Positions 4,731 through 22,636 of a stretch of 64,000 nt of DNA are shown piece by piece. The position numbers were made by a program, and so were the translations under genes. The DNA is from Sedimentisphaerales bacterium. Its GTDB lineage: Bacteria; Planctomycetota; Phycisphaerae; Sedimentisphaerales; Anaerobacaceae. The DNA is taken from assembly GCA_963662565.2 (NCBI GenBank), contig CAXXXG010000008.1, positions 3,614-67,613 on the forward strand, read 5' to 3'. A model generated the notes under the pieces. That model saw only the letters and a list, made by a program, of their open reading frames with translations. It searched no databases and was not told where the DNA came from. Every line of letters begins with the position of its first letter. Positions within the stretch are counted from its first letter, which is position 1.

Positions 4731-5537
4731 ATGATTGCTATCGCGTCATTATTGATTGTGCTTATGATGTCGTTACTCATAACCCGAGTGGCGACCATGG
4801 CCTTAACGTTAACGGGGATGTCGCAGGAGGTAGCGAAATTCCAAGCGAGATCGGCTTTCACGGGTGTGGGATTTACGACCCATGAGGCAGAGGCCATTCT
4901 TTCGCACCCGGTGAGGCGGCGAATCATTATGTTGTTAATGCTGCTGGGGAATCTCGGCGTGGGCGCGGTGGTGGCCACTTTGATGCTGTCGGTCATGCAG
5001 ACGGCCGAGTCGGATCTTTGGTGGGTAAAGCTGTTGAGTTTGGTGGTGGGCCTGATGTTACTGAGTCTGGCAGCGAACAACCGACGTCTGGAACGACATT
5101 TAAATCGCGTTATTGCCTGGGGATTACGCCGTTGGAGTAATTTGCCCGTACGGGACTATGTCGCCCTGCTTCAATTACAGGATGGTTATGGAGTCAGCGA
5201 ACTCCTGGTTGAATCCGCCGATTGGTTAGCAGAGAAGACCTTGATCGAACTAAAGCTGCCGCGAGAAGGTGTGTTGGTACTGGGAATCAAGCGTACCACC
5301 GGTGTGTATCTCGGTACACCAACAGCAGAGACAGAGGTTCATGCGGGTGACACATTGATTCTATACGGTCCGGCCGAACGTATTGGGGAGCTTGATCAAC
5401 GCAGTCGAGGGAGCAAGGGAGATGTGGCCCATCGCGAGGCCATAGAAGAGCACCAAGAGGGTTTAGAAGCTCAAGTGAAGATCGACGATCAGAGGGACGA
5501 ACCAAACAAGGCAACCACATCGAACGACTTGCCTTAA
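4731..5537 (+). CDS. membrane protein with C-terminal TrkA-C (RCK_C) domain
   Basis: Two or three N-terminal TM helices, then ...VSELLVESADWLAEKTLIELKLPREGVLVLGIKR...VHAGDTLILYGP, typical of TrkA-C. Confidence 0.65.
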   Translation: MIAIASLLIVLMMSLLITRVATMALTLTGMSQEVAKFQARSAFTGVGFTTHEAEAILSHPVRRRIIMLLMLLGNLGVGAVVATLMLSVMQTAESDLWWVKLLSLVVGLMLLSLAANNRRLERHLNRVIAWGLRRWSNLPVRDYVALLQLQDGYGVSELLVESADWLAEKTLIELKLPREGVLVLGIKRTTGVYLGTPTAETEVHAGDTLILYGPAERIGELDQRSRGSKGDVAHREAIEEHQEGLEAQVKIDDQRDEPNKATTSNDLP

Positions 5538-5627
5538 GGGGACCTCTGATACCATTGACACGAAATACTTTTGGACCTAAGTTTACCGTGAGTTCATTTG
5601 AGACCTCAGGTAGAGTCTTCTGCTGTA

Positions 5628-7076
5628 TTATGGCTTTGGGCTCCACGTGTAATCGGCACCAATGACAGTGATGCGGTTGTTGACCTCGCGGGTGCCCTCG
5701 GTTAGCAGGGCGACGCGGTCGGCTTCACTTCGCTGGCCCCAGGTATTTACGCTGCCGGTCAGGGTGACGGTGGCGTCGGTGACTGAGATCGTAATTCGAT
5801 CGGCAACCCAACGCGTGGCCCAGTTGGCTTCGAGATGGGTTCGAATACGACCCTCTAAAACCGCATCGGTATACACACCTGAGGGGTTGACCGTCAGATT
5901 GTTCACCACTTGACGGATGCCCCGCACCGGCGCAATGACGTCCATAACCTGTGTTTTCTCGTAAAGCGTATTGACGGACCCGGCCAGGATTACCGTGCCT
6001 CCTTGTACGTAAATCTTGATGTTCTGGGAGTCGAGGTAGGTGGTCAAATTGACCGCCCGGCGCACATCCGTCCCGATGGCTTCGTCCGAGCGGTTTTCCA
6101 CATCGACCTTCAGATCGTTGAGCACCCAGCCCACACCGATGATTTCACGGGCCAGTTGTTCGGCGAGTTGGGCCTGATAATAGCTCGGGACCGATCCGCT
6201 GAGGGTGACAACACCTTGGTCTACTTTCAGTAAGAGTCGTGAGGAATCCAGGTAGACGTGCTGTTGGAGTGCCCGGCGTACGGACTCCTGGAGTTCCTGG
6301 TTACTCGGGGTGGGAAGGATACGACGGGGGCTGTTCTCCTGCCACCACTGTACGGTCAGCTTATTGTCTACGCCCTTGACGTACAGAATGTTGAGTACGA
6401 CGCGGCCGGCGCGTTCTTTTTGGTAGGCATTGCCCACTCGCCCTTCCAGGATCACGATACCGTTCCGAACGGAAGCCGAAATGGGTAGGCCACTGAGATA
6501 AATATCCCGATCCAAGAGAATCAGCACGTCGCGTTCGATCTCCCCATCGGTTCGAGGGGATCTGGGTAGGATGGTCAGTTCGTTGCGGAGTTGCTTGACC
6601 CCCGGCACCTGACTGACACGTAACTCGACCTCCTGGCGTTCGCTCCAGGATGCGACCTCGCCGGTCAGGGTGATGATGCCATTGATGAAATGGACCCCGA
6701 TAACGGATGAGGTTGGGGTGCGGTATTCAGCGAGACGCCGCTGTATGTCGATCAGGAGGTCTTCCTCCGATCGCTGGGGGCCTTCAACCACGAGATTGTT
6801 GATGACCCCCAGAACCCCATTGATCTTGCGGGCTTCGTTACCGGCATAATTCTTTCCCGCCAGACTGCCGACCTTTCCATTGAGCGTAACGATCCCCTCG
6901 GAGGTTTGGATATCAACCTGGGTGGTGGTGATACGCGGATTCTCGCTAAAGGCCTCGGCCACCCAGAAGCTGATCGTGGTATCGCTGGGGCGTTCTTGGG
7001 CAATCGCGTTCAGGTTGCTCAGCAACATAAGGCTCAAAGCGAACGATGAAAGAGTGTTGTGGAGATGGGTTGTCAT
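5628..7076 (-). CDS. secreted/periplasmic protein with six tandem BON domains
   Basis: Signal peptide, then six repeats of the G.VTL.G.V.....(x)..V.GV..V.N.L.V pattern. Confidence 0.8.
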   Translation of the reverse strand: MTTHLHNTLSSFALSLMLLSNLNAIAQERPSDTTISFWVAEAFSENPRITTTQVDIQTSEGIVTLNGKVGSLAGKNYAGNEARKINGVLGVINNLVVEGPQRSEEDLLIDIQRRLAEYRTPTSSVIGVHFINGIITLTGEVASWSERQEVELRVSQVPGVKQLRNELTILPRSPRTDGEIERDVLILLDRDIYLSGLPISASVRNGIVILEGRVGNAYQKERAGRVVLNILYVKGVDNKLTVQWWQENSPRRILPTPSNQELQESVRRALQQHVYLDSSRLLLKVDQGVVTLSGSVPSYYQAQLAEQLAREIIGVGWVLNDLKVDVENRSDEAIGTDVRRAVNLTTYLDSQNIKIYVQGGTVILAGSVNTLYEKTQVMDVIAPVRGIRQVVNNLTVNPSGVYTDAVLEGRIRTHLEANWATRWVADRITISVTDATVTLTGSVNTWGQRSEADRVALLTEGTREVNNRITVIGADYTWSPKP

Positions 7077-7149
7077 GTTGACGACTCCTTTCGGGTAAAT
7101 AGCGTCGTTGTCATGCCCTTGTGGGGTTGAAATGAGTGATGAATTTACC

Positions 7150-8259
7150 TTACCCGTGATAAAAAATCAAAACCAGATCGATGACGAATAACAGGACGAT
7201 TGTGGCTTCCATCGTAACCATAAACAGATCCGTACGATCCTGTTGAATCAAGTGGTAAAGGTCGGCCAAGGTACGCTGTTTTTGATCCGTAGTCTTTTGC
7301 CAATCCTCCAGATGAAAACGACTGGATAGGGCCTGATATATACGCGCCAGATGCCAGTCACCGAAAAACTTGGTGATGTTGGATAGTTCGTCACTGAGCC
7401 GAGATAGATCCACGCTGATTTCGCGTAGTTCCTTGTGGATGGCCCGGCCACTACGCAGGTTCAGCCGAGCTACATCACGATAAGCCCGTTCGCTGGCACT
7501 GTCCAACAGGCGATCGTAAATCCCGAGTTCCAGCAGTTGCACATTGGCGACCTCCATGATGTGCAGCACTTCGGCCGCATCGTCCGAATCGCCCAGTATA
7601 AGGGCCGCATCCCAGTCGATGACCACCAGATCCTGATCGTAATAACTCAGATCGTATTGGGTGGACTCGTCGATTTCTTGTTGGGACAGACGCTGGGGTT
7701 CGGGCTCTTCGGTCAGGAGCCCGGCGATGGCACGACGCTGTTGATCCAACCAGTCGGTGGCGGCTAGATCGGAAGACATCGGTTGAAAATGAAAGACGGT
7801 ATAGGCCTCGCTGGGACCCAACTGCTCGACCGGACGGACGCAGTGGGGTCCGAGGTCCTGCATGATCGCCTGCCCCAGGCTCAGAGCGAGTTGGCCGACG
7901 GGACCGTCTTCAGCACCATGGCTGTGGGTGTCCACTAAATGATCCCAGTCCTGTTGAACGAAGGGGACGTGGATGCAGAGGCTGATGGCTCCAATGTTGA
8001 AGACCTTGACCGTGCAAGTGACCTCAAGAGATTGTCCTTCCAGGGTGACTTTCTGGTCGGGCAAATGCACCAGGGCCGGTCGATAGAAGAAGGGTTGGCG
8101 AGGACTGCGTTTGGTCGTGCACAGGTTGTACTCCTGCACGGTTCGACCCAGCAAGGTGGTCAGCGAACCACGTTTCATATCGTAGGCGACATCGAATGCA
8201 TAGATGTAAACGATACTGCCGTTGTAACGTTCCAGCGAATGGTTGGATGGGGTGTTCAT
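7150..8259 (-). CDS. DUF155/RMD1-like protein with C-terminal TM helix
   Basis: The pattern (VYIYAFDVAYDM, VKVFNIGAISLCIH, long helical region, terminal TM) resembles the YagE/RMD1 family. Starts 15 nt after the upstream ligase gene. Confidence 0.4.
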   Translation of the reverse strand: MNTPSNHSLERYNGSIVYIYAFDVAYDMKRGSLTTLLGRTVQEYNLCTTKRSPRQPFFYRPALVHLPDQKVTLEGQSLEVTCTVKVFNIGAISLCIHVPFVQQDWDHLVDTHSHGAEDGPVGQLALSLGQAIMQDLGPHCVRPVEQLGPSEAYTVFHFQPMSSDLAATDWLDQQRRAIAGLLTEEPEPQRLSQQEIDESTQYDLSYYDQDLVVIDWDAALILGDSDDAAEVLHIMEVANVQLLELGIYDRLLDSASERAYRDVARLNLRSGRAIHKELREISVDLSRLSDELSNITKFFGDWHLARIYQALSSRFHLEDWQKTTDQKQRTLADLYHLIQQDRTDLFMVTMEATIVLLFVIDLVLIFYHG

Positions 8260-8274
8260 TGTTGTTCAGATTCT

Positions 8275-9825
8275 TTATATGGACGAGGATGGGGTCATTG
8301 TTTTGGTCCAAATCTGTTTGGGATCTCCATGATCATAGAAATCGACAACCTCGGCTTCGAGGATGTACCCGAGTCCACGATAAAAGGCTTGAGTGTTGTG
8401 ATAATCCGATCGTCCGGACGTTTCGATGACTACCCGATGGCCACCATGGGTTTCAATGTGATGTTCGGCATGTTCCATCAATATTCGTCCCAGACCTCGT
8501 CCCTGGTGCTCGGGTGCCACACCGATCCAGTAGATATCCCAGGTACTTACCGTACAGGGGGTTGGGCCGCAACAGATCCATCCCATGGCCTCGTCGTTTT
8601 GGCAGGCGACCCAGGATTGATAGTGTCCCTGCGGGCCGGTAGCATGGGCCTCGTCCAGAACTTCGCAGGCGATGGTCAGTTCGTTGGGGCGAAACAGATC
8701 TGTACGGGTCAAGGCTGACAGAACGGTTTCTCGATCGCCGGATTGGCTGCGACGAATGGTGATATCCCCAACGGAAACGGGAGGAGGAGGGGCGATTGGA
8801 GATTTCAGACGAGGCAGGTGCTCAAGGGCGTTGTAGAGACACAGGCGAATGAATTCGTGGTAGCCGATGTCACGGGCTGCCAGGGCCGCGGCAAAACCGG
8901 CGTCTGGGGAGATGTCGGGATTGGCATTGACCTCCAACACATAGGGGGACAGCTCTGCGTCCAAACGAAAATCCACACGGCAATAATCCAGGCATCCTAA
9001 GGCCCGACAAGAGGCAACGGCCAGTTCACGGACACGACTTTCGACCAGCACCGGTAACGGCGCGGGAATGATGCGCGGGGTGTGACGATACTCGAAAGAA
9101 TCCTCCAGCCACTTGGCCTCATAGCCCACGATGCGGGGACGATCCGGAGTAAAGGCGGAAAAGTCGATTTCCGCCAAGGGCAGGACCTGAGCCTCGTCGT
9201 GTCGCCAGAGTACCGAGACATTGAGTTCCCGGCCCTCGATATACTGTTCGATCAAGACCGGCTTGCCCAGGGTTTGATGCAAATGGCGGACTCGTTGTTG
9301 CAGGGCCTTACCGGCTGTCGGGATCACACTGTCACGGTCGATGCCCTCACTGGCATCCGTCCCCACGGGCTTGACGATATAGGGGCCGGGAAAAAGGTCG
9401 GCTTCATGGATAAGGTGGTTGGGACTGACACGAATGGCCCGCGGACAGGGGATGTCGGCGGCCCGTAGCACAGCCTTACTCTTCCATTTGTCGAGGCTCA
9501 GCAGCAGTCCGGCAGTACTGTTGCCGGTACAGGCTTTCCCCATCGCGGTGCACAGGGCCGGAATCCAATTGGCCTGTTCCGGATTCTCGGGAAAGCCTTC
9601 CACCAGATTAAAGACGACATTCTCCCCGGCACAGGCCAGGGCGTCCGGAATATGTTGCAGGTTATCTACGCCCACGGAACGCACCGGGACATGCAACTTG
9701 GCACAGGCCTTGGTTACGGCTGCGACTTCCTCCAACACACCGGCCTCACTCTCGGCAAATCCTCCCGCTGCTTGACCGGTTGGACGATTGTACAGAATCA
9801 GCACGCCTTTGATAATGTCGAGCAT
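8275..9825 (-). CDS. D-Ala-D-Ala-ligase-like ATP-grasp fused to a C-terminal GNAT acetyltransferase
   Basis: N-terminal Ddl-type ATP-grasp: DKWKSK, YIVKPVGTDASEGI, IEQYIEGRELNVSV, RVDFRLD..YVLEVNANPD. C-terminal GNAT: WIGVAPEHQGRGLGRILMEHAE. An alternative GTG start lies at 9804. Confidence 0.8.
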   Translation of the reverse strand: MLDIIKGVLILYNRPTGQAAGGFAESEAGVLEEVAAVTKACAKLHVPVRSVGVDNLQHIPDALACAGENVVFNLVEGFPENPEQANWIPALCTAMGKACTGNSTAGLLLSLDKWKSKAVLRAADIPCPRAIRVSPNHLIHEADLFPGPYIVKPVGTDASEGIDRDSVIPTAGKALQQRVRHLHQTLGKPVLIEQYIEGRELNVSVLWRHDEAQVLPLAEIDFSAFTPDRPRIVGYEAKWLEDSFEYRHTPRIIPAPLPVLVESRVRELAVASCRALGCLDYCRVDFRLDAELSPYVLEVNANPDISPDAGFAAALAARDIGYHEFIRLCLYNALEHLPRLKSPIAPPPPVSVGDITIRRSQSGDRETVLSALTRTDLFRPNELTIACEVLDEAHATGPQGHYQSWVACQNDEAMGWICCGPTPCTVSTWDIYWIGVAPEHQGRGLGRILMEHAEHHIETHGGHRVVIETSGRSDYHNTQAFYRGLGYILEAEVVDFYDHGDPKQIWTKTMTPSSSI

Positions 9826-10841
9826 AAAGCCTCCGGATACCGGGCACAGGCACTGGTGATAATGCGGTCTATCAGGACTTCATAGGCCAACCCCTCCTGC
9901 GTGGCGATCATGGGCAGGTCCGAGTGGGTCGGATGCAGGCCGGGCAGGGGATTGATTTCGATAAAGCAGGGACGACCGTTATGATCGAGACGGATGTCTA
10001 CCCGTCCGGTGTCACGACATTCGAGAGTGCGATAGCTGGCCAGGGCCAAGGCCTCGACCTCCTGACGTAACGGTCCGGTGGGCATGGGAAAGTAACGGAC
10101 ATAGGATTCGCACTGTTCCTTGACTTCATAGGAATAGTCCTGGGCCGGGGCATCCGGGGCGATGGCAAACTCCAGGGTTCCCAGGACAGCCGCATCTGAA
10201 CCAGTCCCCAGGATCGCGGTGGTGAATTCGCGACCGGGCAGGTACTCTTCCACTAATACCGGTTGTTGAAAACGCCGCAGCAGTGCAGTCGCCACCTGAT
10301 CCAGTTGGTCCGGATGGTCCAGACGGGATAAATGGTCCACTCCTTTACCCGTGCCTTCGGCCAAAGGCTTGGCAAAAAGTGGGTAGGTCAGATCGATGTC
10401 ACCCAGTTCCGAAGATTGGGTCACCACCTGGAAACGAGCGGTAGCCAGACCGGCCTGTTGAATCAGTCGCTTGGTCATGGCCTTGTCCAGGGTCAGGGCG
10501 CAGACCAGGGGATCGGAGAAGGTGTAAGGAATTTGGTAGAGTTCCAGTAAGGACGGCACCTGGGCCTCACGCGAGCGGCCATGGAGTCCTTCGGCGATAT
10601 TGAATACCAGGTCCCAGCGTTTCCCCTTGACCAGTTTTTCGGCCAGGGAGCGGGCATGACCGATACGCACCGGTCGATGGCCCAGTCCGTCCAGGGCCTG
10701 CTCGATGGCCTCGATGGTCGCGGCCGAATCGAATTCCGCCACCTGTTCATCAGTGTAACCCTGGGCCAGGTAATCGTCGCGTAAATCGTAGACCAGGCCG
10801 ATGGTCAGTCCGGTGTTGCTGTGTGTATTGAGTGTCGTCAT
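9798..10841 (-). CDS. D-Ala-D-Ala-ligase-family ATP-grasp enzyme
   Basis: LDKAMTKRL, PLFAKPLAEGTGKGV, VEEYLPGREFT, GRVDIRLDHNGRPCFIEINPLPGL. 4-nt overlap with the upstream gene. Confidence 0.8.
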   Translation of the reverse strand: MTTLNTHSNTGLTIGLVYDLRDDYLAQGYTDEQVAEFDSAATIEAIEQALDGLGHRPVRIGHARSLAEKLVKGKRWDLVFNIAEGLHGRSREAQVPSLLELYQIPYTFSDPLVCALTLDKAMTKRLIQQAGLATARFQVVTQSSELGDIDLTYPLFAKPLAEGTGKGVDHLSRLDHPDQLDQVATALLRRFQQPVLVEEYLPGREFTTAILGTGSDAAVLGTLEFAIAPDAPAQDYSYEVKEQCESYVRYFPMPTGPLRQEVEALALASYRTLECRDTGRVDIRLDHNGRPCFIEINPLPGLHPTHSDLPMIATQEGLAYEVLIDRIITSACARYPEALCSTLSKAC

Positions 10842-12583
10842 GATTTCACCTCGGTAAATTCATGGGCTAGTGCCTTGGCCATGCCATGGAAAAAGGCAGG
10901 TGCGCCACGGCGCAGATTGCGTAGGCTGTATCCCCCCTCCTGGACCACCAGTGTCGGCAAACGTAGGTCGCCGATCCGCTGGCCTATTTGACGCAGAGAT
11001 GTGGCCGTGAGGACGAACGAACCGGTGGGGTCGCCCTTCATGGTGTCGAATCCGATGCAGACCACCAGGAAGGTGGGTGCGAAGCGGACGATTTGTTTGA
11101 GGGCCTTGTCCAGGGTCTGGAGATAGAGCGTTTCGTCGGTGTTCTCGGGCAAGGGAAAATTCACATTAAATCCTGCACCCGACCCTTGACCGGTTTCGTC
11201 GCTGAACCCACTGAAATACGGATACGAATGGTTGGGGTGGCCGTGAATGCTGATCGTCAGCACGTCGGAGCGTTCGTAGAAGATGTCCTGGGCTCCATTG
11301 CCGTGGTGATAGTCAATGTCGAGCATAGCGACCTTGCCCTGGGCGCTGAGATAGTGCGCGGCAATGGCGGCGTTGTTGAAGTAACAAAATCCGCCGAAGG
11401 TGCGTCGCTCGGCATGGTGACCGGGCGGGCGGCACAGACTGTAGGCCACGCGTCGACCGTGCAGCATTTCCTCGGCCCCGGTCAGGGCGATATCCACGGC
11501 CTGGCGGGCGGCCTGGTAGGCGTTGCGGTCCAGGGGCGTGAAGGTGTCGATGCAGTAGTAACCCGCACGCACGGCCAGTTCCTTGGGCCGTCGCTCGGGC
11601 CGCCGAATGGGAAATACGTAGGGATAGACCGGACCCTTGTCACTGAGTTTTTCGCAGACCACTTTCAGGTAGGTCACGAAATCGCCGGCATGGACGTGTC
11701 GCAGGTGGTCCTCGCCATAGTGACGGGGCTTGATGGGATCGAACAGACCCGTGGGCTGCAAGGCCTGTTCCAGGGCTCCGACCCGAGCGGGTCGTTCCAC
11801 GTAGCCACGATCCTTAACGTGATGGATCGTGTGCAGATCGCCCGAGACCAGGGCAAAGGCCTTGACCCGATGGTCCTTGTGTTGAGTGGGTGACTCGGCA
11901 GTGTGGTAGCGCGGATCGCGGAGCCGGACCGGATTCTCGATCACGCTCTCGACAACCCGCTCGATATAGTCGGGCGGGACGATGTGGCCATACTTACGCT
12001 TGAGGATGATCCGCATGGCCGCGCGACACTCGGATCGCTTTAATGGCTTGCCACTGCCCAGATCGTCGTAAAGCAAATACGGAGCCGGATCGTCGTCGAT
12101 GGGGGTCTCGAATTCGGTGTTGATGATGGGACGCAGACCGTACTGTTCATAGAAGGCCAGATGTTTCTGGTTTTCCTTTAACAGCTTGGCGTCCTTAACG
12201 ACCTCAGGGTCGTCAGGCAACACCTCCATGTAGAGCCCGCGAGAGCCCTGGCTTTTGAGGTATTCCTGGGTGGCCTCGAACAAGGCGCTGCCGATCCCGC
12301 GTCCACGTCGCTCCCCGATTGTGGCCAGGAAGTCCAGCAGGCTGCTATTGATCTCCGGGAAGTGAATCACCAGAGAAAAGCCGGTGACCTTACCCAGCGA
12401 GGTCTCGCTGACCAGCAGGATGGTCCGGTAGCCAAACTTGAAGGGATGGTCCAGCAATTCGGGGATCTTGTCCGCATAGTCGGCCACGGCCCCAAAGTTA
12501 CGTCGGAAGATGTCCTGGGTCTGGCGGATGCGTTCCCGATCGATGGGAAGAACCGTACCATAGACCCGTTGAATCAGAATCAT
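10838..12583 (-). CDS. GNAT acetyltransferase fused to an HDAC/acetylpolyamine-amidohydrolase-type deacetylase
   Basis: N-terminal GNAT: ATIGERRGRGIGSALFEA. C-terminal Zn-deacetylase motifs: CRPPGHHAE, MLDIDYHHGNGAQDIF, GFDTMKGDP, VQEGGY. Confidence 0.85.
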   Translation of the reverse strand: MILIQRVYGTVLPIDRERIRQTQDIFRRNFGAVADYADKIPELLDHPFKFGYRTILLVSETSLGKVTGFSLVIHFPEINSSLLDFLATIGERRGRGIGSALFEATQEYLKSQGSRGLYMEVLPDDPEVVKDAKLLKENQKHLAFYEQYGLRPIINTEFETPIDDDPAPYLLYDDLGSGKPLKRSECRAAMRIILKRKYGHIVPPDYIERVVESVIENPVRLRDPRYHTAESPTQHKDHRVKAFALVSGDLHTIHHVKDRGYVERPARVGALEQALQPTGLFDPIKPRHYGEDHLRHVHAGDFVTYLKVVCEKLSDKGPVYPYVFPIRRPERRPKELAVRAGYYCIDTFTPLDRNAYQAARQAVDIALTGAEEMLHGRRVAYSLCRPPGHHAERRTFGGFCYFNNAAIAAHYLSAQGKVAMLDIDYHHGNGAQDIFYERSDVLTISIHGHPNHSYPYFSGFSDETGQGSGAGFNVNFPLPENTDETLYLQTLDKALKQIVRFAPTFLVVCIGFDTMKGDPTGSFVLTATSLRQIGQRIGDLRLPTLVVQEGGYSLRNLRRGAPAFFHGMAKALAHEFTEVKS

Positions 12584-13932
12584 TCGTAGGCCTCTGTGTC
12601 ATTGTCCGGGCCGCAGCAGGCACGGCGTCGATCCAGACGCACGGCCCGGTCGGGCTGGATGTGACTGTGGGCTCCGGAGGCCACATGCCAGACGCTGGGG
12701 GCGGCACCCTCGGCGGGGCTGACTATGGGGTCTTCGAAGCGGCTATGCGGTTCGGGGTAGGCGATCAGCATGCCTTCGTAGTTGCGAAGGACCGTGTGCG
12801 TGGGACTCTGGGACACCACGTAGGTCGGCAGCACGGGAATCTTTCCGCCGCCGTGCGGGGCATCGACCACAAAGGTCGGGATGGCCAGACCGCCCACGCG
12901 GCCGCGCAGGTATTCCATGATCTCCATACCCTTGGTAACGGGAGTACGGAAGTGCTCCACACCCCGAACCAGGTCACACTGGTAAAGGTAATAGGGACGC
13001 ACCCGCATACGGACCAGGCTGCGGCAGAGCTGCTCCTGGATGTGCGGATGGTCGTTGACTCCCCGCAACAGGACCGACTGGTTACCCAGAGGGATGCCCG
13101 CGTCGGCCAGGCGAGTGCAGGCTTCGATCGATTCGGGGGTGATTTCGTTCGGGTGGTTGAAGTGGGTGTTGATCCAGACCGGATGGTATTGACGCAGCAT
13201 CTGACAGAGTTCGTCGGTGATGCGTTGCGGCAGGACCACGGGCATGCGCGTACCGATGCGGATAATCTGTACCGACGGAACACTCCGCAGGTGCAGTAGG
13301 ATCGTCTCCAGCTTGTCTGTGGTCATGGTCAGGGGATCGCCGCCCGAAATGATCACGTCCGAGACGTCCGGGTGCCGAGTCAGGTAGTCGACCACCTGAT
13401 TGAGTCGTTGACGGCTGATGCTGTTTTCTCGGGTTCCGGCGACGCGTTTACGCGTACAGTGACGGCAGTACATCGAACACATGGTGGTGGCGATCACCAG
13501 GGCACGGTCCCCATAACGGTGAATCAATCCCGGAACCGGCATATCGCGACATTCCTCCAGGGGATCGGAACTGAGAAACGGCGGATCGATCAGTTCGTCC
13601 AGTTGCGGAACCGCCATCTGAAACACCGGGTCGGATGGATCGGCCGATCGGATCAGGGAGGCATAGTAAGGGGTGATCGCCATGGGATACTTGCCGATGA
13701 CCGGAGACAGGTCGGAAGAGGCCTTCAGGGCGGGAAAGAGATTTAGCAGTTGCGGAACCGTTCGAATACGGCTGCGGATCTGCCAGCGCCAATCATTCCA
13801 TTCGGGATGACGTACGGGGGCGGGGATCAAAGTCGAAGACTGGAGGCAGACCGGTGGAGGTTCGTCGTCGGCACTTGTCCGCGCGACCGACGTCAGTACG
13901 GGATTACCTCCTTTCTGGAAATTATGATTCAT
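12580..13932 (-). CDS. KamA-family radical-SAM lysine 2,3-aminomutase (paralogue 1)
   Basis: [12 protein letters not shown] radical-SAM cluster, [45 protein letters not shown]. Has N- and C-terminal extensions. Confidence 0.9.
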   Translation of the reverse strand: MNHNFQKGGNPVLTSVARTSADDEPPPVCLQSSTLIPAPVRHPEWNDWRWQIRSRIRTVPQLLNLFPALKASSDLSPVIGKYPMAITPYYASLIRSADPSDPVFQMAVPQLDELIDPPFLSSDPLEECRDMPVPGLIHRYGDRALVIATTMCSMYCRHCTRKRVAGTRENSISRQRLNQVVDYLTRHPDVSDVIISGGDPLTMTTDKLETILLHLRSVPSVQIIRIGTRMPVVLPQRITDELCQMLRQYHPVWINTHFNHPNEITPESIEACTRLADAGIPLGNQSVLLRGVNDHPHIQEQLCRSLVRMRVRPYYLYQCDLVRGVEHFRTPVTKGMEIMEYLRGRVGGLAIPTFVVDAPHGGGKIPVLPTYVVSQSPTHTVLRNYEGMLIAYPEPHSRFEDPIVSPAEGAAPSVWHVASGAHSHIQPDRAVRLDRRRACCGPDNDTEAYE

Positions 13933-14092
13933 GGATCAAATCCTTATCTTAAGAAAATAGAATACCGTTCGAGCAAACGCTCTCACAATGACGGGATGTA
14001 GTTCCTCTCCGAGGTTCACACCGATCGTCGGCACGAATATTCGGGATACCTGAGCACTCTCACCTTAAAGTTGTCAATCAACAATGGCTGAG

Positions 14093-14121
14093 GATATAGT
14101 ACGTTTTATTCGGCAGGTCAA
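14093..14121 (-). promoter_or_regulatory. candidate sigma-70 promoter for the kamA-side operon
   Basis: On the minus strand: TTGACC (14121-14116), 17 nt spacer, TATATC (14098-14093). Implies a leader of about 150 nt to the ATG at 13932. Confidence 0.35.
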
Positions 14122-14161
14122 TCACGAAAAAACAAAAAAACAGAAAAAAAACATTTGGCTG

Positions 14162-14189
14162 TTGACGTTACTGTAAAACAAGCTATATC
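14162..14189 (+). promoter_or_regulatory. candidate sigma-70 promoter for the C39/RimK-side operon
   Basis: TTGACG (14162-14167), 16 nt spacer, TATATC (14184-14189). Preceded by an A-rich tract at 14126-14150. Confidence 0.35.
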
Positions 14190-14250
14190 TAGCGCGCATA
14201 ATATTCCTTTTGGTGGACAAACCGCGTCATGAAAGGATCGTGGTTGACTC

Positions 14251-14974
14251 ATGAGAACGACACTGACATTGGAAATTTTACCACAACCGGACGACACCAC
14301 CTGTGGCCCGACCTGCCTGCATGCCTTGTATCGTTACTTTGGTGAGACCGAGGATCTGTCTGAGGTCATCCGGGAGGTGCCGTCACTGCAAGGTGGGGGA
14401 ACACTGGGTGTCATGCTGGCCAATCATGCCCTGGCCCGCGGCTATCAGGCCACGATCTATACCTACAATCTGCTCATCTTCGATCCGACCTGGTTCGCCC
14501 CCGGTATTATTCTGACCGAGAAGCTGAGTCAGCGACTGGCCGTCACTCAAGACCGCAAGCAACGTCGGGCCTTGGAGGCCTATCTGCACTTCCTGGAACA
14601 AGGAGGAACCCTCTGCCTGGAGGATTTGACACGCTCGCTGTTACGTCGTTTTTTAAATAGCGGACGTCCCATCCTGACCGGGCTCAACTCGACCTTTCTC
14701 TACCGTACCATGCGGGTCTACGGCGACGACATGGTCGATGACGATATCCGTGGGGAGGTGGTCGGACACTTTGTCGTGCTCTGTGGTTACGATCGAGAAA
14801 AAAAAAACCATTCTGATTGCCGATCCCTACAGCGGCAATCCTTATTCTGCCGATCGCATGTATGAAGTTCCTATCGATCGTGTCATCGGTGCCGTTTTCC
14901 TGGGCGTAATGACCTACGATGCCAACTTTTTAATTATCGAGCCCAAGCGGCAACGAAAGGCCCTTGATTCATGA
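14251..14974 (+). pseudogene. C39-like cysteine peptidase, interrupted by a +1 frameshift in an A10 run
   Basis: DDTTCGPTCL (Cys) and GHFVVLCGYD (His). The reading frame moves from frame 1 to frame 2 at A10 (14798-14807); removing one A gives ...YDREKKTILIADPYSGNPY... The stop overlaps the next ATG (ATGA). Confidence 0.7.
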
Positions 14975-16433
14975 AAATACTGCTAGTGGTCTCTAATGCC
15001 AAAAAATGGCCCTTGAATATCCCGGACTGCGAGGTGGTTGCGGCCCGCAAGTATCTGACCGAGCCGGTCTTCTCCCATCTGACAGGTGTGCGGGTCTTCA
15101 ACCTGATGTGTCCCTGCCGTTACCAGAGCCAAGGCTACTACGTGTCCCTCTTGGCCGAGGCCCGCGGCCATAAGCCCGTGCCCAATATCACCACCCTGCG
15201 GGACCTTTACACCCCGGCCATGGTTCGTATGACCAGTGCGGCCCTGCAAGACTCCATCCAAAGCAGTTTGCAGGGCATCAAGTCGGACCGCTTCGAATTG
15301 AGTTTATACTTTGGCCGCAACCTGGCCAAGCGATACGACAAACTCTGTCGTGAGCTATTCAATCGTTTCCACGCCCATTTCCTGCGGGCCATGTTTGTGC
15401 GGGTCAAGGGACAGTGGACCCTACAGAATATCAGCCCCATCAGCATCAACGAAGTACCGGACAGTCACTACCGCTTTGTGGAAGAGGCGGCCAACGACTA
15501 CTTCACCCACGCGGGCTATCGTCAAAGGAAACTCCAAACCTTCCGCTACAGCCTGGCTATCCTGCACCAACCCGGTGAAAAGATGCCCCCTCCAATGGTG
15601 CAGCCCTCAAGAAGTTCGTCAAGGCCGGTCACAAACTGGGCCTGGACGTTCAGTTCATCACCAAGGACGACTTCGGTCGTCTGTCGGAGTTCGATGCCCT
15701 CTTCATTCGCGAGACCACTAATGTCAACAACCACACCTTCCGCTTCGCCCGTTATGCCGAGGCCGACGGTCAGGTGGTAATCGACGACCCCCAGTCCATC
15801 ATTCGCTGTGCCAATAAGGTCTTCCTGGCCGAGTTACTGGGGCATCAACGCATCGCCACGCCCGAGACCATGATCGTACACAAGGACAATGTGGACCTGA
15901 TCCGCCACACCTTGGGCCTGCCCTGCGTACTCAAGCAGCCGGACAGCAGCTTCTCCATCGGCGTCAAGAAGGTCACCGAGGCCGATGATCTGGAACACGA
16001 AGCCCTGGCCATGCTGGAGAAGTCAGAGCTGATCATCGCTCAGGCCTTTTTGCCCACCGAGTTCGACTGGCGCGTGGGCATCCTGGATCAAAAGGTCCTG
16101 TACGTCTGCCGCTATTATATGGCCGAGAATCACTGGCAGATCATCAAGCGGGATGCCAAGGGCCGCAAGGAAGAAGGCAATGCCGACACCCTGCAACTAC
16201 CGGATGTCCCGGAAGAGGTCCTCAAGATCGCCCTGCGTTCCACCGCTCCCATCGGACGTGGGCTCTATGGCGTGGACATCAAACAGGTGGGCAGCAAGTT
16301 CTACGTCATCGAGGTCAACGACAACCCCAGCATCGACGCGGGCGTGGAGGACGCGGTCCTGCAGGACGACCTCTACCAACAGATCATGGCCGTGTTCCTG
16401 CAACGCATCGAACAACGCAAGGCCGTGGTCTAA
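14971..16433 (+). pseudogene. RimK-like ATP-grasp ligase with RLAN-type N-terminal domain, interrupted by a -1 frameshift in a C5 run
   Basis: The N-terminal domain matches the RimK-like ATP-grasp N-terminal (RLAN) pattern. After ATGCCCCCTCC (15583-15593) homology continues in another frame (PSNGAALKKFVKAGHKLGLDVQFI...DALFIRETT...VVIDDPQSIIRCANKVFL...IEVNDNPSID). Confidence 0.75.
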
Positions 16434-16445
16434 GGATCCTTCAGC

Positions 16446-17669
16446 ATGAGCAAAACATCACTCCACCTCTTCGAAGGCTACGGCCTGGAACTGGAATACA
16501 TGATTGTGGACCGCGATACCTTTGAGGTACGCCCCATCGCCGACTGGCTACTGGCCCAAGTCGGCCCCCAGGGTACCCGCGAGGTAGAACAGGGGCAACT
16601 GTGCTGGTCCAACGAACTGGCCCTGCATGTCATCGAACTCAAGGGCAACGGCCCGGTGGCGGACATGACAACCCTGGCCGACCCTCTACAGCGTGACATT
16701 GCCCGTATGAACGAGCTGCTGGCCGCCCAGGGGGCCTGCTTGATGGGCTCGGCCGTACACCCCTGGATGGATCCCGATGCCGACTCTCGCCTGTGGCCCT
16801 TTGAGGATGCCCCGATTTACCAGGCTCTGGACCGCATCTTCGGTTGTCACGGTCACGGCTGGTTCAACCTGCAATCGGCCCACCTGAATCTGCCCTTTGC
16901 CAATGACGAGGAATTCGCCCGCCTGCATGCGGCCATTCGCCTGGTGCTGCCGATCATTCCGGCCCTGGCTGCGGCCTCGCCGTTTTTGGATGGGGTTGAC
17001 ACCGGCCTGTGGGACGCCCGTCTGCATGTCTACAGCCAGCACTGCAACCGCCTGCCTGCGGCCATTGGCAAGGTCATTCCCGAGCCAGTCTCCAGCGAGC
17101 AGGAATACCAGGACACCATCCTGGAGCCGCTGTATCAATTGCTGCGTCCGCTGGATAAAGAAGGCACCCTCTGTTACGAATGGAGCAATGCCCGTGGTGC
17201 CATCGCCCGCTTCGAACGTAACGCCATCGAAGTCCGCCTGATCGACGTGCAGGAACATCCCGGCATGGATCAGGCCGTGGTCGGGGCGGTGGCAGCGGCC
17301 ATCCGCCTGCTGACCGATCAGGCTTGCCAGGACAAGGACGCCATGAACGCTCTGTCCTGTGTGCGTTTGCGCAAGATCCTGGACGAAGCTATTGCCTGGG
17401 GCGAACAGGCCCAGGTTACTGACGATGATTTTTTGCGTCTTTTGTGTGGTTCGGATCATCCCCGGTCCGCCCAACAGGTGTGGCGGGATATGATCTACCG
17501 CTGCTCGGATTTTGCGGGTCCGGCCCGTGCAGGGGTTGAACAACTCCTTACACAGGGGACCCTGGCGACGCGATTGCGTCAGGTCACTGGCCCGGTCACC
17601 GGGGAGTCCTTGCACAGGACCGCACAGCGATTATGTCAGGCCTTGGCACGTGGGGAAATGTTGGTGTAG
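16446..17669 (+). CDS. GCS2-family carboxylate-amine ligase (glutamate-cysteine ligase family 2 / YbdK-like)
   Basis: GLELEYMIVD, ELALHVIELK, GMGSAVHPW and HLNLPF pattern of the GCS2 family. 407 aa. Confidence 0.7.
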   Translation: MSKTSLHLFEGYGLELEYMIVDRDTFEVRPIADWLLAQVGPQGTREVEQGQLCWSNELALHVIELKGNGPVADMTTLADPLQRDIARMNELLAAQGACLMGSAVHPWMDPDADSRLWPFEDAPIYQALDRIFGCHGHGWFNLQSAHLNLPFANDEEFARLHAAIRLVLPIIPALAAASPFLDGVDTGLWDARLHVYSQHCNRLPAAIGKVIPEPVSSEQEYQDTILEPLYQLLRPLDKEGTLCYEWSNARGAIARFERNAIEVRLIDVQEHPGMDQAVVGAVAAAIRLLTDQACQDKDAMNALSCVRLRKILDEAIAWGEQAQVTDDDFLRLLCGSDHPRSAQQVWRDMIYRCSDFAGPARAGVEQLLTQGTLATRLRQVTGPVTGESLHRTAQRLCQALARGEMLV

Positions 17670-17710
17670 TGTCACGACCGTGGCATAACTCTCCGTCGGA
17701 GTGAACAAGC

Positions 17711-18217
17711 ATGTCTTGGAAATGGATTTGGGATATCAGCCCACTGGATTACCACTCGATCCTCTGTGTCGTAGCCGGCGCCGCCTTTGTCGGTCTCGAA
17801 CGCCAACTGATGGGGAAACCTATTGGTATCCGTACCAGTTCACTGATCAGTTTTGGAACCTATATTTTTGTGGCGATGGCACAGTCGATCATCAGTGAGC
17901 AAATGGACCCATCCCGTATCATCGGCCAAATCATCACAGGGATCGGCTTTTTGGGTGCGGGTGTAATGTTTTCCCAGAATGGATCCGTGCAAGGCGTCAC
18001 ATCGGCAGCGGCGATTTGGATCTTGGCGGCAATCGGTGCCGTTGGCGGGCTGGGATATCCCCATCTCAGTGTGAAGATCGGAATTCTGGCTGTTTTATTG
18101 TTGGTGGGGATCGAAAAGGTCGAAAGAACCTTCACCTTTATGCAGCGTGGTGTGCATCGTCGAGTGCAGCAGTATCGGGACAGATCTCCCGATAAAGCGA
18201 AACAGGCAAACAAATAA
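17711..18217 (+). CDS. MgtC/SapB-family membrane protein
   Basis: GAAFVGLERQLMGKPIGIRTSSLISFGT, ITGIGFLGAGVMF, AAAIWILAAIGAVGGLG. Confidence 0.8.
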   Translation: MSWKWIWDISPLDYHSILCVVAGAAFVGLERQLMGKPIGIRTSSLISFGTYIFVAMAQSIISEQMDPSRIIGQIITGIGFLGAGVMFSQNGSVQGVTSAAAIWILAAIGAVGGLGYPHLSVKIGILAVLLLVGIEKVERTFTFMQRGVHRRVQQYRDRSPDKAKQANK

Positions 18218-18228
18218 GGTAGACATCC

Positions 18229-19017
18229 ATGGAAACGACAGAAGTCCTCTGGACATTAACCGAACAAGAGGGCCCCATTGTGGCCTGTGCCATTCATGAG
18301 GGTCACGACGTCCGACCCGAGGTTGCCATAGGCTTGGCTCTCCATGAAGATGACCGTCTGCGTGAAGAAGATCCCTATAGCGGCGAATGGACCGCTGTGG
18401 GGGACACTCGACTGGTCGTGCATCGTTCACGCTTTGAAATGGATCTCAACCGCCCGCGCGAGCGGGCCGTGTATATCGAGCCGGCCGACGCCTGGGGGCT
18501 GACCGTCTGGCAACAGCGTCCGCCGCAGGCATTGATCGATCGATCGCTGGCCCAGTACGACGATTTTTATGCCATGCTAGGGGACCTGCTCGTTCGCAAA
18601 CAAAAAGAGCATTCTCGACTGGTGGTCCTGGATCTGCACACGTATAATCACCACCGCTTGGGACCGGAGCAGCCCTTTGACGATCCGGCCCTGAATCCCG
18701 AGATCAATGTAGGCACCGACACCATGGACCGGTCGCGTTGGACCCCGCTGGTGGAGCGTTTCATGCAGGACCTGCGTGAGTACGATTTCATGGGACGGTC
18801 CCTGGATGTCCGAGAGAACGTAAAATTCGGTGGCGGTTGGATGAGCCAGTGGATCCACGATCACTTCGGCGAACAGATATGCGTGCTGTCCGTGGAGTTC
18901 AAAAAGACCTTCATGGACGAGTGGACCGGCCAACTCTATCCGGATCTATTGGCAGCCTTTCACTGTGCTCTGGTGGCAACCCTGCCGGGCCTACGAGAAA
19001 GTTTGAAGTCATTGTGA
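18229..19017 (+). CDS. N-formylglutamate amidohydrolase (FGase)-family hydrolase
   Basis: AIHEGH, RSRFEMDLNR, VVLDLHTYNH and SVEFKK resemble the FGase family layout. Confidence 0.65.
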   Translation: METTEVLWTLTEQEGPIVACAIHEGHDVRPEVAIGLALHEDDRLREEDPYSGEWTAVGDTRLVVHRSRFEMDLNRPRERAVYIEPADAWGLTVWQQRPPQALIDRSLAQYDDFYAMLGDLLVRKQKEHSRLVVLDLHTYNHHRLGPEQPFDDPALNPEINVGTDTMDRSRWTPLVERFMQDLREYDFMGRSLDVRENVKFGGGWMSQWIHDHFGEQICVLSVEFKKTFMDEWTGQLYPDLLAAFHCALVATLPGLRESLKSL

Positions 19018-20930: not shown

Positions 20931-21973
20931 AATTAGGATTTCTGGTCAACGACATACAGACCGAACAGGCCGGTTACACCACCACGCGTCTGGCCATGAC
21001 CGCCATCAACCGTGGACACGAGGTGTGGATCATTGGAGCAGGCGACTTTGCCTACAGTGTGGACGAACACATCCATGCTCGCGCCTACCGCGCACCTAAA
21101 TCCAAGTACAGCAACAATAAGACCTACCTGGCCGATTTGCAGGGCCCCAAGGCCAAGCGAGAATGGATCGTGGTCGATGACCTGGACGTTCTCATGCTCC
21201 GCAACGACCCCTCGGCCGACACCGGTGTACGCTCCTGGGCCCAGACCGCGGGGATCATCTTCGGTCGGGCCGCTATGCGGGCCGGGGTCATCGTGCTCAA
21301 CGATCCCGACGGTCTGGCCAAGGCCATGAACAAGATGTACTTCCAGCTCTTCCCTGAAGAGGTCCGCCCCCGCACCATCATCACCCGCGATCGCGATGAG
21401 ATCCGTCGCTTTGCCAAGGAAGAAGGTGGCCACATCATCCTCAAGCCCCTGCAGGGTTCGGGCGGTACAGGCGTGTTCATGGTACGTAAGGACGATCTAT
21501 CCAATATCAACCAGATGGTCGAGGCCGTCAGCCACTACGGCTACGTCATCGCCCAGGAATACCTGCCCGCCGCGGCCGAGGGGGACATCCGTCTGTTCCT
21601 CATGAACGGCCAACCCCTCCGCTACAAAGGCAAATATGCCGCCTTCCGGCGCGTACGTTCCAGCGAAGACATCCGCAGCAACATCCACGCCGGCGGCAAG
21701 CTCGCCCCGGCCGTGATCACCAAAGAACACCTCGACGTCGTGGAAATGGTTCGTCCCAAACTCGTGCAGGACGGCATGTTCCTCGTCGGCCTCGATATCG
21801 TCGGTGACAAGCTCATGGAAATCAACGTCTTCAGCCCTGGTGGCCTCGGCAGCGCCCAAAACTTCGAAAAAGTCAACTTCTGTCACCCCGTCATCGACGC
21901 CCTGGAAAAAAAGGTCGAGTACATGAAGTACTATCGCCGCAACTTCGACAATGTCGAAATGGCGATGCTTTGA
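20927..21973 (+). CDS. glutathione-synthase-like (GshB-type) ATP-grasp ligase
   Basis: MKLGFLVNDI...RLAMTAINRGHEVW N-terminal domain, ILKPLQGSGGTGVF, AQEYLP, EINVFSPGG. ATGA overlap with the upstream gene. Confidence 0.8.
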   Translation: MKLGFLVNDIQTEQAGYTTTRLAMTAINRGHEVWIIGAGDFAYSVDEHIHARAYRAPKSKYSNNKTYLADLQGPKAKREWIVVDDLDVLMLRNDPSADTGVRSWAQTAGIIFGRAAMRAGVIVLNDPDGLAKAMNKMYFQLFPEEVRPRTIITRDRDEIRRFAKEEGGHIILKPLQGSGGTGVFMVRKDDLSNINQMVEAVSHYGYVIAQEYLPAAAEGDIRLFLMNGQPLRYKGKYAAFRRVRSSEDIRSNIHAGGKLAPAVITKEHLDVVEMVRPKLVQDGMFLVGLDIVGDKLMEINVFSPGGLGSAQNFEKVNFCHPVIDALEKKVEYMKYYRRNFDNVEMAML

Positions 21974-22120
21974 GAACCCCGCTCAGACGCCGCGGGGGCT
22001 TATAAAAAGAAATCGGGGAAAATGTGACAATTTGTTGAGTTAATTTGTATAAATAGACTTTTAAAGAAATCGCTTCGTTGCTTAGGGTATAGGAGATTCC
22101 CAAATTCCATTCTACATGAC

Positions 22121-22636
22121 TCAACGATTCCATGACGTGTTAAAATCTAGGCGTCTTATTAATTCGAAAGTGTTAATGCTGTTAATTCCTAAAGAAGCAC
22201 AAACATCAGGGACATGTTTATTGGCTCCTTGCCTACTAGGTTTTGATGCCTCTTCTGTGACAATGCACCGATTTTTGACATCCAACAGTGCATAAGAAAT
22301 TAAGAAAGGATCCCGCCCCATTTTTGCAATGTCGTCATCAGTTGGATTGGGCAAATAGCCGTTGTATACTACATGAGAGACAAATTGAGACTCAGCCTCT
22401 TCCTTTAATCGTAAAGCATCCTTCACTTCCGTTGTCGCTGCCCAGGCGGCAAGTTCATCTTGTTCTCCTTGCTTAGATTTAGTGTCCTTAAATTCTTCGT
22501 AAATCTCAATCGGAATGGCTATATTTTCACGCTGTCCTTGGTATATTAACCATTCCCAAAATTCCGGCACACGAGAAAGTGGATAGTACCAATTTTTGGC
22601 ATTAATTAATACATTGGCATCCAGTAAATAAAGCAA
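22121..22636 (-). CDS. DUF4411-family PIN-like nuclease
   Basis: N-terminus MLYLLDANVLINAKNWYYP...VPEFWEWL is characteristic of DUF4411. Lies in an AT-rich region. Confidence 0.7.
   Translation of the reverse strand: MLYLLDANVLINAKNWYYPLSRVPEFWEWLIYQGQRENIAIPIEIYEEFKDTKSKQGEQDELAAWAATTEVKDALRLKEEAESQFVSHVVYNGYLPNPTDDDIAKMGRDPFLISYALLDVKNRCIVTEEASKPSRQGANKHVPDVCASLGINSINTFELIRRLDFNTSWNR

Follow-up and report, generated by a model that had tools for sequence, protein, structure and literature searches.

What might a bacterium make with an operon that places a lysine 2,3-aminomutase (LAM) of the KamA family beside two ATP-grasp ligases resembling D-alanine--D-alanine ligase (Ddl), two acetyltransferases of the GNAT family and a domain of the histone deacetylase (HDAC) fold? 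The question is raised by a cassette at positions 8275-13932 of a 64,000-nucleotide stretch of a Sedimentisphaerales genome (contig CAXXXG010000008.1), which is the whole of the DNA analysed and is called the window below; its best protein hits place the organism in Phycisphaerae/Sedimentisphaerales. The answer that we favour, and hold tentatively at slightly less than even confidence, is that the cassette directs the synthesis, within the cytoplasm, of a di- or tripeptide-like small peptide or amide that is based on β-lysine and N-acetylated, and that the GNAT::HDAC fusion protein edits the acetyl groups of this product. The genes and domains on which this answer is built are the following.

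12580-13932, minus strand: KamA2, 450 amino acids, Pfam Radical_SAM and LAM_C
10838-12583, minus strand: GNAT::HDAC fusion, 581 amino acids, N-terminal GNAT (weak Pfam match) and Hist_deacetyl (250 bits)
11879-12583, minus strand: GNAT_N domain, residues 1-235 of the 581-residue fusion
10838-11878, minus strand: HDAC domain, acetylpolyamine-amidohydrolase-like, the part matching Hist_deacetyl (250 bits)
9798-10841, minus strand: DdlA, Ddl-like ATP-grasp protein, 347 amino acids, Dala_Dala_lig_C (95.7 bits)
8275-9825, minus strand: DdlB::GNAT_C fusion, 516 amino acids, Dala_Dala_lig_C and Acetyltransf_1
8791-9825, minus strand: DdlB domain, residues 1-345 of 516, Dala_Dala_lig_C (67 bits)
8275-8790, minus strand: GNAT_C domain, residues 346-516 of 516, Acetyltransf_1 (59 bits)

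The four open reading frames (ORFs) run head to tail, all on the minus strand. ATGA stop/start overlaps join KamA2 to GNAT::HDAC (12580-12583) and GNAT::HDAC to DdlA (10838-10841), and DdlB starts at 9825, 28 nucleotides within DdlA, with GGAGG ahead of its start codon. A first reading of this DNA from its letters alone (the sequence-only reading) had named these genes at these positions and proposed that they are translationally coupled; the matching Pfam domains bear out the former and the two overlaps together with the internal DdlB start the latter. Upstream of the operon no known RNA such as a riboswitch was found, a scan of the whole window at the Rfam gathering thresholds returning three tRNAs only, and no sigma-54 motif was seen by eye upstream of KamA2. 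The counts from a promoter and terminator scan of positions 5000-14400 equal the shuffled expectation.

Is the arrangement more than a local accident? A scan of one genome per species gave 595 relatives of GNAT::HDAC, of which the best 80 loci, from 80 species, were examined; with three more from an exact protein look-up they make up a comparison set of 83 loci, each with about 8-10 kb of available flank and 61 of them with flank enough for assessment. The best 80 matches are near end-to-end at about 48-72% identity, one of them being cut by a contig end. KamA, DdlA, DdlB and GNAT_C adjoin GNAT::HDAC in 49 of the 61 assessable loci and do so in at least three gene orders. The carriers span at least ten phyla and include Planctomycetota (among them a Brocadiaceae genome), Spirochaetota, Desulfobacterota, Dehalococcoidia, Lentisphaerota, Acidobacteriota, Nitrospirales and Synergistaceae, and further Woeseia, Nitrococcus and Filomicrobium (Gamma- and Alphaproteobacteria), Hydrogenedentota and FCPU426. 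Synteny of this extent in loci from so many phyla lies far beyond chance.

Gene fusions tighten the picture. KamA::DdlA fusions of about 745-785 amino acids, whose ligase half is of the DdlA type, occur in three cases (P0252, P0254 and P0272) and tie β-lysine directly to the first ligase. The DdlB::GNAT_C fusion of the window recurs in 120 of the 120 matches listed, mostly from Sedimentisphaerales and other Phycisphaerae where these are named. In nine loci GNAT_C is instead the last part of a GNAT::HDAC::GNAT_C fusion of about 750 amino acids (for example L033, 8001-10259), and in most other loci it is a separate gene. The KamA::DdlA and GNAT::HDAC::GNAT fusions could serve biochemistry as single-polypeptide versions. 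An all-against-all clustering of the 1009 flanking ORFs of the 83 loci found no further conserved partner; TetR, winged helix-turn-helix, CxxCxxCC, MarC, MFS and ABC genes appear there as sporadic neighbours only, and no exporter, carrier, Mur ligase, tailoring, efp or amidotransferase gene is conserved across the set.

This survey bears directly on the thought that the cassette serves a secreted specialised metabolite, an N-acetylated and thereby self-protected β-lysine peptide that the deacetylase unmasks after the logic of the phosphinothricin tripeptide. Acetylation and deacetylation beside peptide ligases is a familiar self-resistance pattern, GNAT_C weakly matches the resistance acetyltransferases STAT (23 bits) and AAC(6'), and MFS or MarC membrane proteins do stand in a few loci. 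However, exporter, immunity and tailoring genes are not conserved around the cassette, and its domain content is constant, with GNAT::HDAC proteins of 48-72% identity spread across many phyla, so that it looks like core physiology and not like a patchy secondary-metabolite cluster. We consider a masked antimetabolite improbable.

The first gene of the operon would supply the building block. KamA2 aligns with the LAM of Clostridium subterminale (PDB 2A5H) at an expectation (E) value of 8e-140 and, in the numbering of that enzyme, keeps the CxxxCxxC motif (C125, C129 and C132) and K337. R134, D293, D330 and K337 are retained by KamA2 as well as by 37 other KamAs linked to the cassette. In 2A5H, as we take it, D293 and D330 hold the ε-ammonium group of lysine, R134 binds the carboxylate and K337 is the lysine that carries pyridoxal 5'-phosphate. 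Glutamate 2,3-aminomutases, studied by Ruzicka and Frey, have Lys and Asn at positions 293 and 330; five representatives of the family show this K/N pattern, group together in tree order and presumably are such enzymes. Since KamA2 keeps both aspartates where the glutamate mutases have K/N, lysine is its expected substrate, and the four retained residues make β-lysine supply, as claimed in the sequence-only reading, a reasonable reading. By its residues KamA2 is thus a LAM paralogue and the presumed β-lysine supplier of the cassette.

It is a paralogue of a particular kind, for the only family model that it passes is the generic KamA model TIGR00238 (322 bits, cutoff 199.2). A glutamate or arginine 2,3-aminomutase was considered and rejected on the retention of D293 and D330 and on scores far below cutoff (425 bits against 650 for the glutamate and 372 bits against 600 for the arginine model). 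KamA2 also falls below the AblA equivalog model TIGR03820 (505.7 bits, cutoff 525.4); its position 268 is His and it lacks the C-terminal Cys triad, and Cys268 and the triad are likewise absent from every one of the 37 further cassette KamAs examined, whereas a second aminomutase of the window, AblA, to which KamA2 is 46% identical, keeps the zinc site that these cysteines form. With no ablB gene adjacent to it either, KamA2 is not an AblA equivalog or canonical LAM. Nor is it an EpmB, given a score of 248 bits far below the cutoff of 369 and the lack of epmA or efp in the operon or recurring in related loci. In a rough neighbour-joining tree (blosum62 distances, midpoint root) the zinc-site KamAs fall into two compact clusters, of which one includes AblA and LAM, and the cassette KamAs lie in several groups outside both of these and outside the K/N group. 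A phylogeny of the two KamA paralogues, put forward along with the sequence-only reading, hence sets KamA2 apart from the AblA/LAM group and yields no single cassette clade.

In four loci of the set (L037, L069, L072 and L076), which belong to some of the planctomycetotal and desulfobacterotal cassettes, a protein of about 180 amino acids with a YkgJ-like CxxCxxCC metal-binding motif is encoded between KamA and DdlA; a role in assisting the zinc-less radical SAM enzyme is possible.

What would the two ligases join? DdlA and DdlB share 28% identity, and their best scores against the NCBIfam Ddl models are 170.5 and 109 to 111 bits, respectively, with a cutoff of 243; all Ddl and Van models of NCBIfam stay below cutoff for both. 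Residues were surveyed in 36 orthologues of each ligase in the nominal numbering of Escherichia coli DdlB, and an alignment with Yersinia pestis Ddl yields the same mapping. K97, K144, E187, K215, R255, D257 and N272 are invariant in 36/36 DdlA and 36/36 DdlB proteins, and E180 and E270 are invariant in DdlA (36/36) and present in 35/36 and 34/36 of the DdlB proteins, respectively. Because the ATP-binding, magnesium-binding and catalytic residues are kept, both enzymes are expected to be active and to form acyl-phosphates, and judged by these residues both should be functional ATP-grasp carboxylate-amine ligases.

The substrate pocket is another matter. Of the residues that line the D-Ala pocket in structure 2DLN (E15, H63, S150, Y216, S281 and L282), Glu15 is not conserved in either family and His63 has become Glu in 36/36 DdlA and 35/36 DdlB proteins. 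Tyr216 is replaced by Glu, Arg or Lys in DdlA and by Trp in DdlB, Leu282 by Asp in DdlA and by Gly in DdlB; Ser150 is Ala in DdlB, and Ser281, invariant in DdlA, is Ala in 27/36 DdlB proteins. As the pocket is altered, and differently in each ligase, DdlA and DdlB probably differ in their substrates and neither of them would make D-Ala-D-Ala. The low family scores and the lost pocket residues together dispose of a true Ddl or VanA function, and the two enzymes are Ddl-like only, as the sequence-only reading had it. The new acidic residue Glu63 would suit a diamino substrate.

The same residues bear on a role in the cell wall, in which the Ddl-like enzymes would make an unusual dipeptide, perhaps with β-lysine, for the stem or cross-bridge of peptidoglycan. 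Ddl homology speaks for such a role, as does PDB entry 2R7H, a relative of GNAT_C that bears the deposited name 'putative D-alanine N-acetyltransferase'. Yet the pocket for D-Ala has lost its defining residues, every Ddl and Van model scores below its cutoff, no Mur, Fem or flippase gene is conserved nearby in the 83 loci, and acetylation of the amine would be expected to block cross-linking. We regard a cell-wall precursor as very improbable.

Both acetyltransferase domains keep the pyrophosphate-binding loop R/Q-x-x-G-x-G/A that marks the GNAT family. In GNAT_N the acetyl-CoA motif RGxGxG (here RGRGIG, its glycines invariant) and an FYE motif are conserved across 16 orthologues, and the predicted model has a predicted local distance difference test score (pLDDT) of about 90 over residues 1-230; its nearest solved relatives, weakly, are AAC(3)-type aminoglycoside acetyltransferases (E 3e-4). 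GNAT_C matches 2R7H, a structural genomics entry that we believe to come from Desulfovibrio G20, at E 2e-27, and its acetyl-CoA loop, QGRGLG, aligns with that of the structure. Neither domain has a match to AblB (TIGR03827) or to an Ngg-type family at E<=1, where generic and resistance acetyltransferases were the only hits, and with the AblB of the window GNAT_C has the acetyl-CoA loop alone in common.

To the HDAC domain the sequence-only reading had assigned no role. Its top sequence matches in the PDB are acetylpolyamine amidohydrolases (APAHs), namely 6PHR (E 9e-76) followed by 9GKZ, 3Q9B and 3MEN, and the same APAHs are the top fold matches of its model (Foldseek E 1e-27, template modelling score to the target 0.80; the model's own predicted score is 0.83). 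The motifs PPGHHA, DIDxHHGNG, GxDxxxGDP and EGGY are invariant, the zinc ligands (Asp, His, Asp), tandem His and catalytic Tyr of class II HDACs and APAHs are kept, and the family has an invariant motif of its own, YYCIDTFTPLD. The domain is close to APAHs in both sequence and fold and has the same zinc and catalytic residues, which makes a small-molecule N-acetyl-aminoalkyl substrate the expected one, and on the strength of sequence and predicted model the domain is a putative APAH-type small-molecule deacetylase. Two glutamates of the Mycoplana ramosa APAH, E106 and E117, which we take to be its polyamine-binding residues, align with Ala and Phe here, and a standard polyamine is therefore probably not the substrate. 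N-ε-acetyl-β-lysine is, chemically, N-acetylputrescine with a carboxymethyl group, and because of this resemblance it, or a peptide that contains it, is an attractive candidate.

The grouping of the HDAC domain with small-molecule APAHs and not with protein deacetylases also helps in judging whether the true target is a protein or carrier, to which the ATP-grasp enzymes would attach β-lysine in the manner of the β-lysylation of elongation factor P or of LysW/RimK-type systems, with HDAC and GNAT acting on protein lysines. The KamA-family enzyme EpmB does feed a protein modification, both ligases have weak Pfam matches to TTL and RimK, and the HDAC fold serves protein deacetylases too. But the ligases are of the Ddl type and not of the RimK/LysX type, KamA2 scores far below the EpmB cutoff, and neither a small ORF nor an efp or carrier gene is conserved in the 83 loci. 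A protein substrate seems to us quite improbable.

A polyamine surrogate deserves more weight. Here the ligases would build a short polycationic oligomer or conjugate of β-lysine whose charge is set by the GNAT and APAH-like domains. SpeG and APAH set the charge of polyamines by reversible acetylation, and streptothricins carry a β-lysine chain. Besides the kinship of the HDAC domain with APAHs, the cassette's two acetyltransferases and one deacetylase agree with such a product, as do the lack of an exporter, the view of β-lysine as a carboxymethyl-substituted putrescine and the more acidic pocket that the Glu in place of His63 (invariant in one ligase, nearly so in the other) gives to both enzymes. 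Against it stand the loss of the polyamine-binding glutamates of the M. ramosa enzyme, the assumption, which it requires, that both ligases use β-lysine, and the loci in which the core of the cassette occurs without GNAT::HDAC. We consider a polyamine surrogate unlikely, and the most serious of the competing explanations.

A deacetylase that should accept an N-acetyl-aminobutyl moiety, in a window that also holds ablA and ablB, could alternatively take part in turnover of the AblAB osmolyte: the HDAC domain would deacetylate N-ε-acetyl-β-lysine, KamA2, whose reaction is reversible, would return β-lysine to lysine, and the ligases would store or divert it. However, AblB never stands beside the cassette in the 83 loci, fusion of KamA to DdlA suggests that the flow is biosynthetic, there are cores that lack the deacetylase, and genes of lysine fermentation are not present. 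Such turnover we think highly improbable.

We return to the β-lysine-based, N-acetylated peptide or amide. Its synthesis would begin with the conversion of L-lysine to β-lysine by KamA2, as the conserved substrate residues suggest. DdlA would then take β-lysine as one of its two substrates and form the first amide bond by way of an acyl-phosphate, a coupling to KamA that the gene fusions support. DdlB, with its different pocket, may form a second amide bond, and GNAT_C, fused to it here, would acetylate an amine of the ligation product. Finally, the GNAT_N::APAH-like didomain may edit acetyl groups on the aminoalkyl side chain, for which two purposes can be imagined. One is a transient N-ε-acetyl protecting group, put on and taken off, that keeps the free ε-amine from attacking the activated carboxylate, so that activated β-lysine could not cyclise or branch. 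The other is a charge switch between a neutral, acetylated and a cationic product.

But to what end would a cell make such a compound? The most likely role, itself a doubtful one, is that of a cytoplasmic protectant or compatible solute. An osmolyte is plausible in view of the missing exporter, the analogy with AblAB and with the osmolyte N-acetylglutaminylglutamine amide (NAGGN), and the OsmY-like, TrkA_C and ablAB genes in the neighbourhood. Several points weigh against this reading and the pathway behind it. A compatible solute sits badly with a deacetylase by which a cationic amine is exposed. Carriers come also from freshwater, soil and groundwater samples (Lac Pavin, Microflora Danica), and the genes beside the cassette that are suggestive of osmotic stress are not retained at the other loci of the set. 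GNAT::HDAC stands alone in 12 of the 61 assessable loci, each flanked on both sides by 6 kb or more, and conversely an Oleidesulfovibrio-like locus and L089 have the KamA-DdlA-DdlB-GNAT core with no GNAT::HDAC near it, which indicates that the acetyl-editing unit is not obligatory, at least locally. The Ala and Phe aligned with E106 and E117 of the M. ramosa APAH count here too, as does the lack of one clean clade of cassette KamAs in the neighbour-joining tree, for which we claim no monophyly. Whether the product would be a dipeptide or an oligomer is a matter of inference, as is the osmolyte role. The fuller proposition, that N-acetylated β-lysyl di- or tripeptides made by two dedicated ATP-grasp ligases and edited by an acetyl writer and eraser form an undescribed class of metabolites based on β-lysine and serve as a compatible solute or polyamine-like cytoplasmic protectant in anaerobic and sediment bacteria from at least ten phyla, is one that we advance as possible, with somewhat less than even confidence.

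The genes around the cassette that enter into these considerations are the following.

27803-29266, plus strand: ablA, TIGR03820 780.9 bits (cutoff 525.4)
29263-30687, plus strand: sodium/solute symporter gene, between ablA and ablB
30680-31513, plus strand: ablB, TIGR03827 322.5 bits (cutoff 205.1)
7150-8259, minus strand: 369-residue protein with a C-terminal hydrophobic helix, starting 15 nucleotides downstream of DdlB::GNAT
5628-7076, minus strand: OsmY-like protein, six BON repeats (255 bits), OsmY model 132.8 bits (cutoff 174)

The ablA/ablB set, whose presence as a separate and canonical unit had been noted beforehand and is upheld by two family scores above cutoff, lies 14 kb from the cassette, and its AblA combines an above-cutoff score, the zinc site and an ablB neighbour. 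Upstream of ablA lies a gene for a sigma-54 activator, the set as a whole spanning 26001-31513 on the plus strand, and ahead of ablA a TGGCAT-N5-TTGCT sequence at 27525-27540 fits what we take to be the sigma-54 promoter consensus; a small ORF (27605-27817) lies between this site and the ablA start. After ablB come a rhamnulokinase-like gene (505 bits, cutoff 528) and an L-rhamnose isomerase gene (31631-34558, plus strand).

On the other side, the 369-residue protein belongs to no Pfam or NCBIfam family, and none of the 83 related loci encodes a homologue; its local co-transcription is possible, but it lies outside the conserved cassette. The OsmY-like BON protein does not adjoin the cassette elsewhere in these loci, and past its gene a TrkA_C protein is encoded on the opposite strand. 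Divergent from the cassette, the neighbouring operon at 14251-21973 (plus strand) holds a second amidoligase system, with genes for a C39-like peptidase, an RLAN-domain protein, a RimK-type ATP-grasp protein, a GCS2 carboxylate-amine ligase and MgtC, and further for an FGase-like amidohydrolase, a QEGLA-motif protein (TIGR02421) and a GshB-like ATP-grasp protein. A link between the cassette and this RLAN/RimK-type ATP-grasp/GCS2 operon was considered and dropped, as no C39 or RLAN homologue occurs in the 83 loci. A low-GC island at 22000-24000 (minus strand; GC content 0.40 as against about 0.55-0.59 around it), which encodes a DUF4411 protein together with an M78/IrrE-like peptidase, has the look of a two-gene module that was acquired.

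Where, then, could the cassette be studied? The 2R7H-type GNAT led to cultured Desulfovibrionaceae in which the cassette stands behind a gene for a sigma-54 activator, in these orders.

D. mangrovi (CP104208.1, operon at about 3,558,300-3,564,150): sigma-54 activator, KamA, DdlA, DdlB, GNAT, GNAT::HDAC
D. psychrotolerans: as D. mangrovi, with an inserted ArsP-type permease and DUF1980 protein
Oceanidesulfovibrio indonesiensis: activator, KamA, DdlA, DdlB, GNAT::HDAC, GNAT
Oleidesulfovibrio-like contigs: activator, KamA, DdlA, DdlB and GNAT only

In D. mangrovi a TGGCAT-N5-TTGCT sequence upstream of KamA (L086, 5457-5472) is a good fit to the presumed sigma-54 promoter consensus and is preceded by two GCGGAACA-N3-TGTTCCGC-like palindromes (L086, 5297-5472); similar palindromes occur in the Oleidesulfovibrio-like locus (L084, 5310-5430). 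The activator gene, the promoter-like match and the upstream palindromes make the cassette look signal-induced in Desulfovibrionaceae. A term search of the paper on the D. vulgaris sigma-54 regulome, confined to the words searched for, returned no mention of the cassette. The activator on the ablA side of the window and that of the Desulfovibrio cassette are 40% identical over their shared AAA+ core, a figure that is uninformative as to their orthology. In Phycisphaerae and Sumerlaeota loci a TetR gene lies upstream of the cassette. The ArsP_1-type permease and DUF1980 genes of D. psychrotolerans lie between DdlB and the GNAT gene (L087, 5901-7944), and the permease is a possible transporter for product or precursor in this species only. 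Since D. mangrovi, D. psychrotolerans and O. indonesiensis are in culture, the cassette is testable, and for one of its components, the GNAT represented by 2R7H, a crystal structure already exists.

To our knowledge, few roles of β-lysine in bacteria and archaea are currently known. An aminomutase, two ligases, two acetyltransferases and a deacetylase kept together in at least ten phyla imply another, probably common, β-lysine metabolite, and the carriers include ecologically important groups such as Sedimentisphaerales, Desulfobacterota, Dehalococcoidia, Woeseia and, in the anammox family, a Brocadiaceae genome. The genes are now annotated 'histone deacetylase', 'D-alanine--D-alanine ligase' and 'GNAT'. 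Should our interpretation be true, DdlA and DdlB would be new ATP-grasp enzymes acting on a β-amino acid and the GNAT::APAH fusion would unite a small-molecule acetyl writer and eraser in one protein; should the product be an osmolyte or polyamine surrogate, stress physiology would be read differently from sediment metagenomes. Neither a description nor a name of this gene combination was found in the full-text literature, subscription journals lying outside the coverage, and the source annotations are generic.

How does the cassette compare with systems that are known? One of its closest counterparts is the AblA/AblB pathway to N-ε-acetyl-β-lysine of methanogens and some bacteria (PMC9049628). 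Like AblA/AblB, and like the yodP-kamA pair of Bacillus subtilis, the cassette couples an aminomutase to a GNAT with β-lysine as the committed intermediate; unlike them, it has a KamA that scores below the AblA cutoff and lacks the zinc site, has no GNAT that fits the AblB model, and adds two ATP-grasp ligases and an APAH-like deacetylase, and in the window it coexists with a true ablA/ablB set. The streptothricin (nourseothricin) system offers a second likeness in its KamA-type β-lysine, its amide bonds and its GNAT. In that system adenylation and carrier enzymes akin to nonribosomal peptide synthetases join the β-lysine in amide linkage, a GNAT confers resistance by acetylating the β-lysine amine, and the clusters are antibiotic clusters of actinomycetes whose product is exported; the cassette instead has ATP-grasp ligases, no carrier and no exporter.

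At the level of single proteins, DdlA and DdlB share with Ddl and VanA the three-domain ATP-grasp fold and the catalytic set from K97 to N272, but differ from them in the pocket residues and in the linkage of their genes to KamA instead of mur genes. Similarly, the HDAC domain has the identical zinc and catalytic residues of the APAHs of M. ramosa, Marinobacter subterrani and Burkholderia pseudomallei, but is always fused to an N-terminal GNAT, carries Ala and Phe in place of E106 and E117, and possesses the motif YYCIDTFTPLD.

Alike in logic is Ngg/AsnO, in which a GNAT and an ATP-grasp domain in one polypeptide yield the N-acetylated dipeptide osmolyte NAGGN. The sequence-only reading drew this analogy, and the part of it that stands is the shared chemical logic, a GNAT and an ATP-grasp domain united in one protein as in DdlB::GNAT. 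Homology does not follow: the ATP-grasp part comes first in DdlB::GNAT whereas the GNAT comes first in Ngg, the ATP-grasp domain is of the Ddl type, no Ngg-type GNAT match occurs at E<=1, and no AsnO-like partner is found, an amidotransferase gene being conserved nowhere in the 83 loci. For the ATP-grasp part, the best 25 of 45 matching families are all of Ddl, Van or RimK type, with no Ngg-type family among them. The building block of the cassette, moreover, would be a β-amino acid from a radical SAM mutase. The enzyme families of the cassette are all known, and its combination of mutase, ligase and acetyltransferase has its precedents in AblAB and NAGGN.

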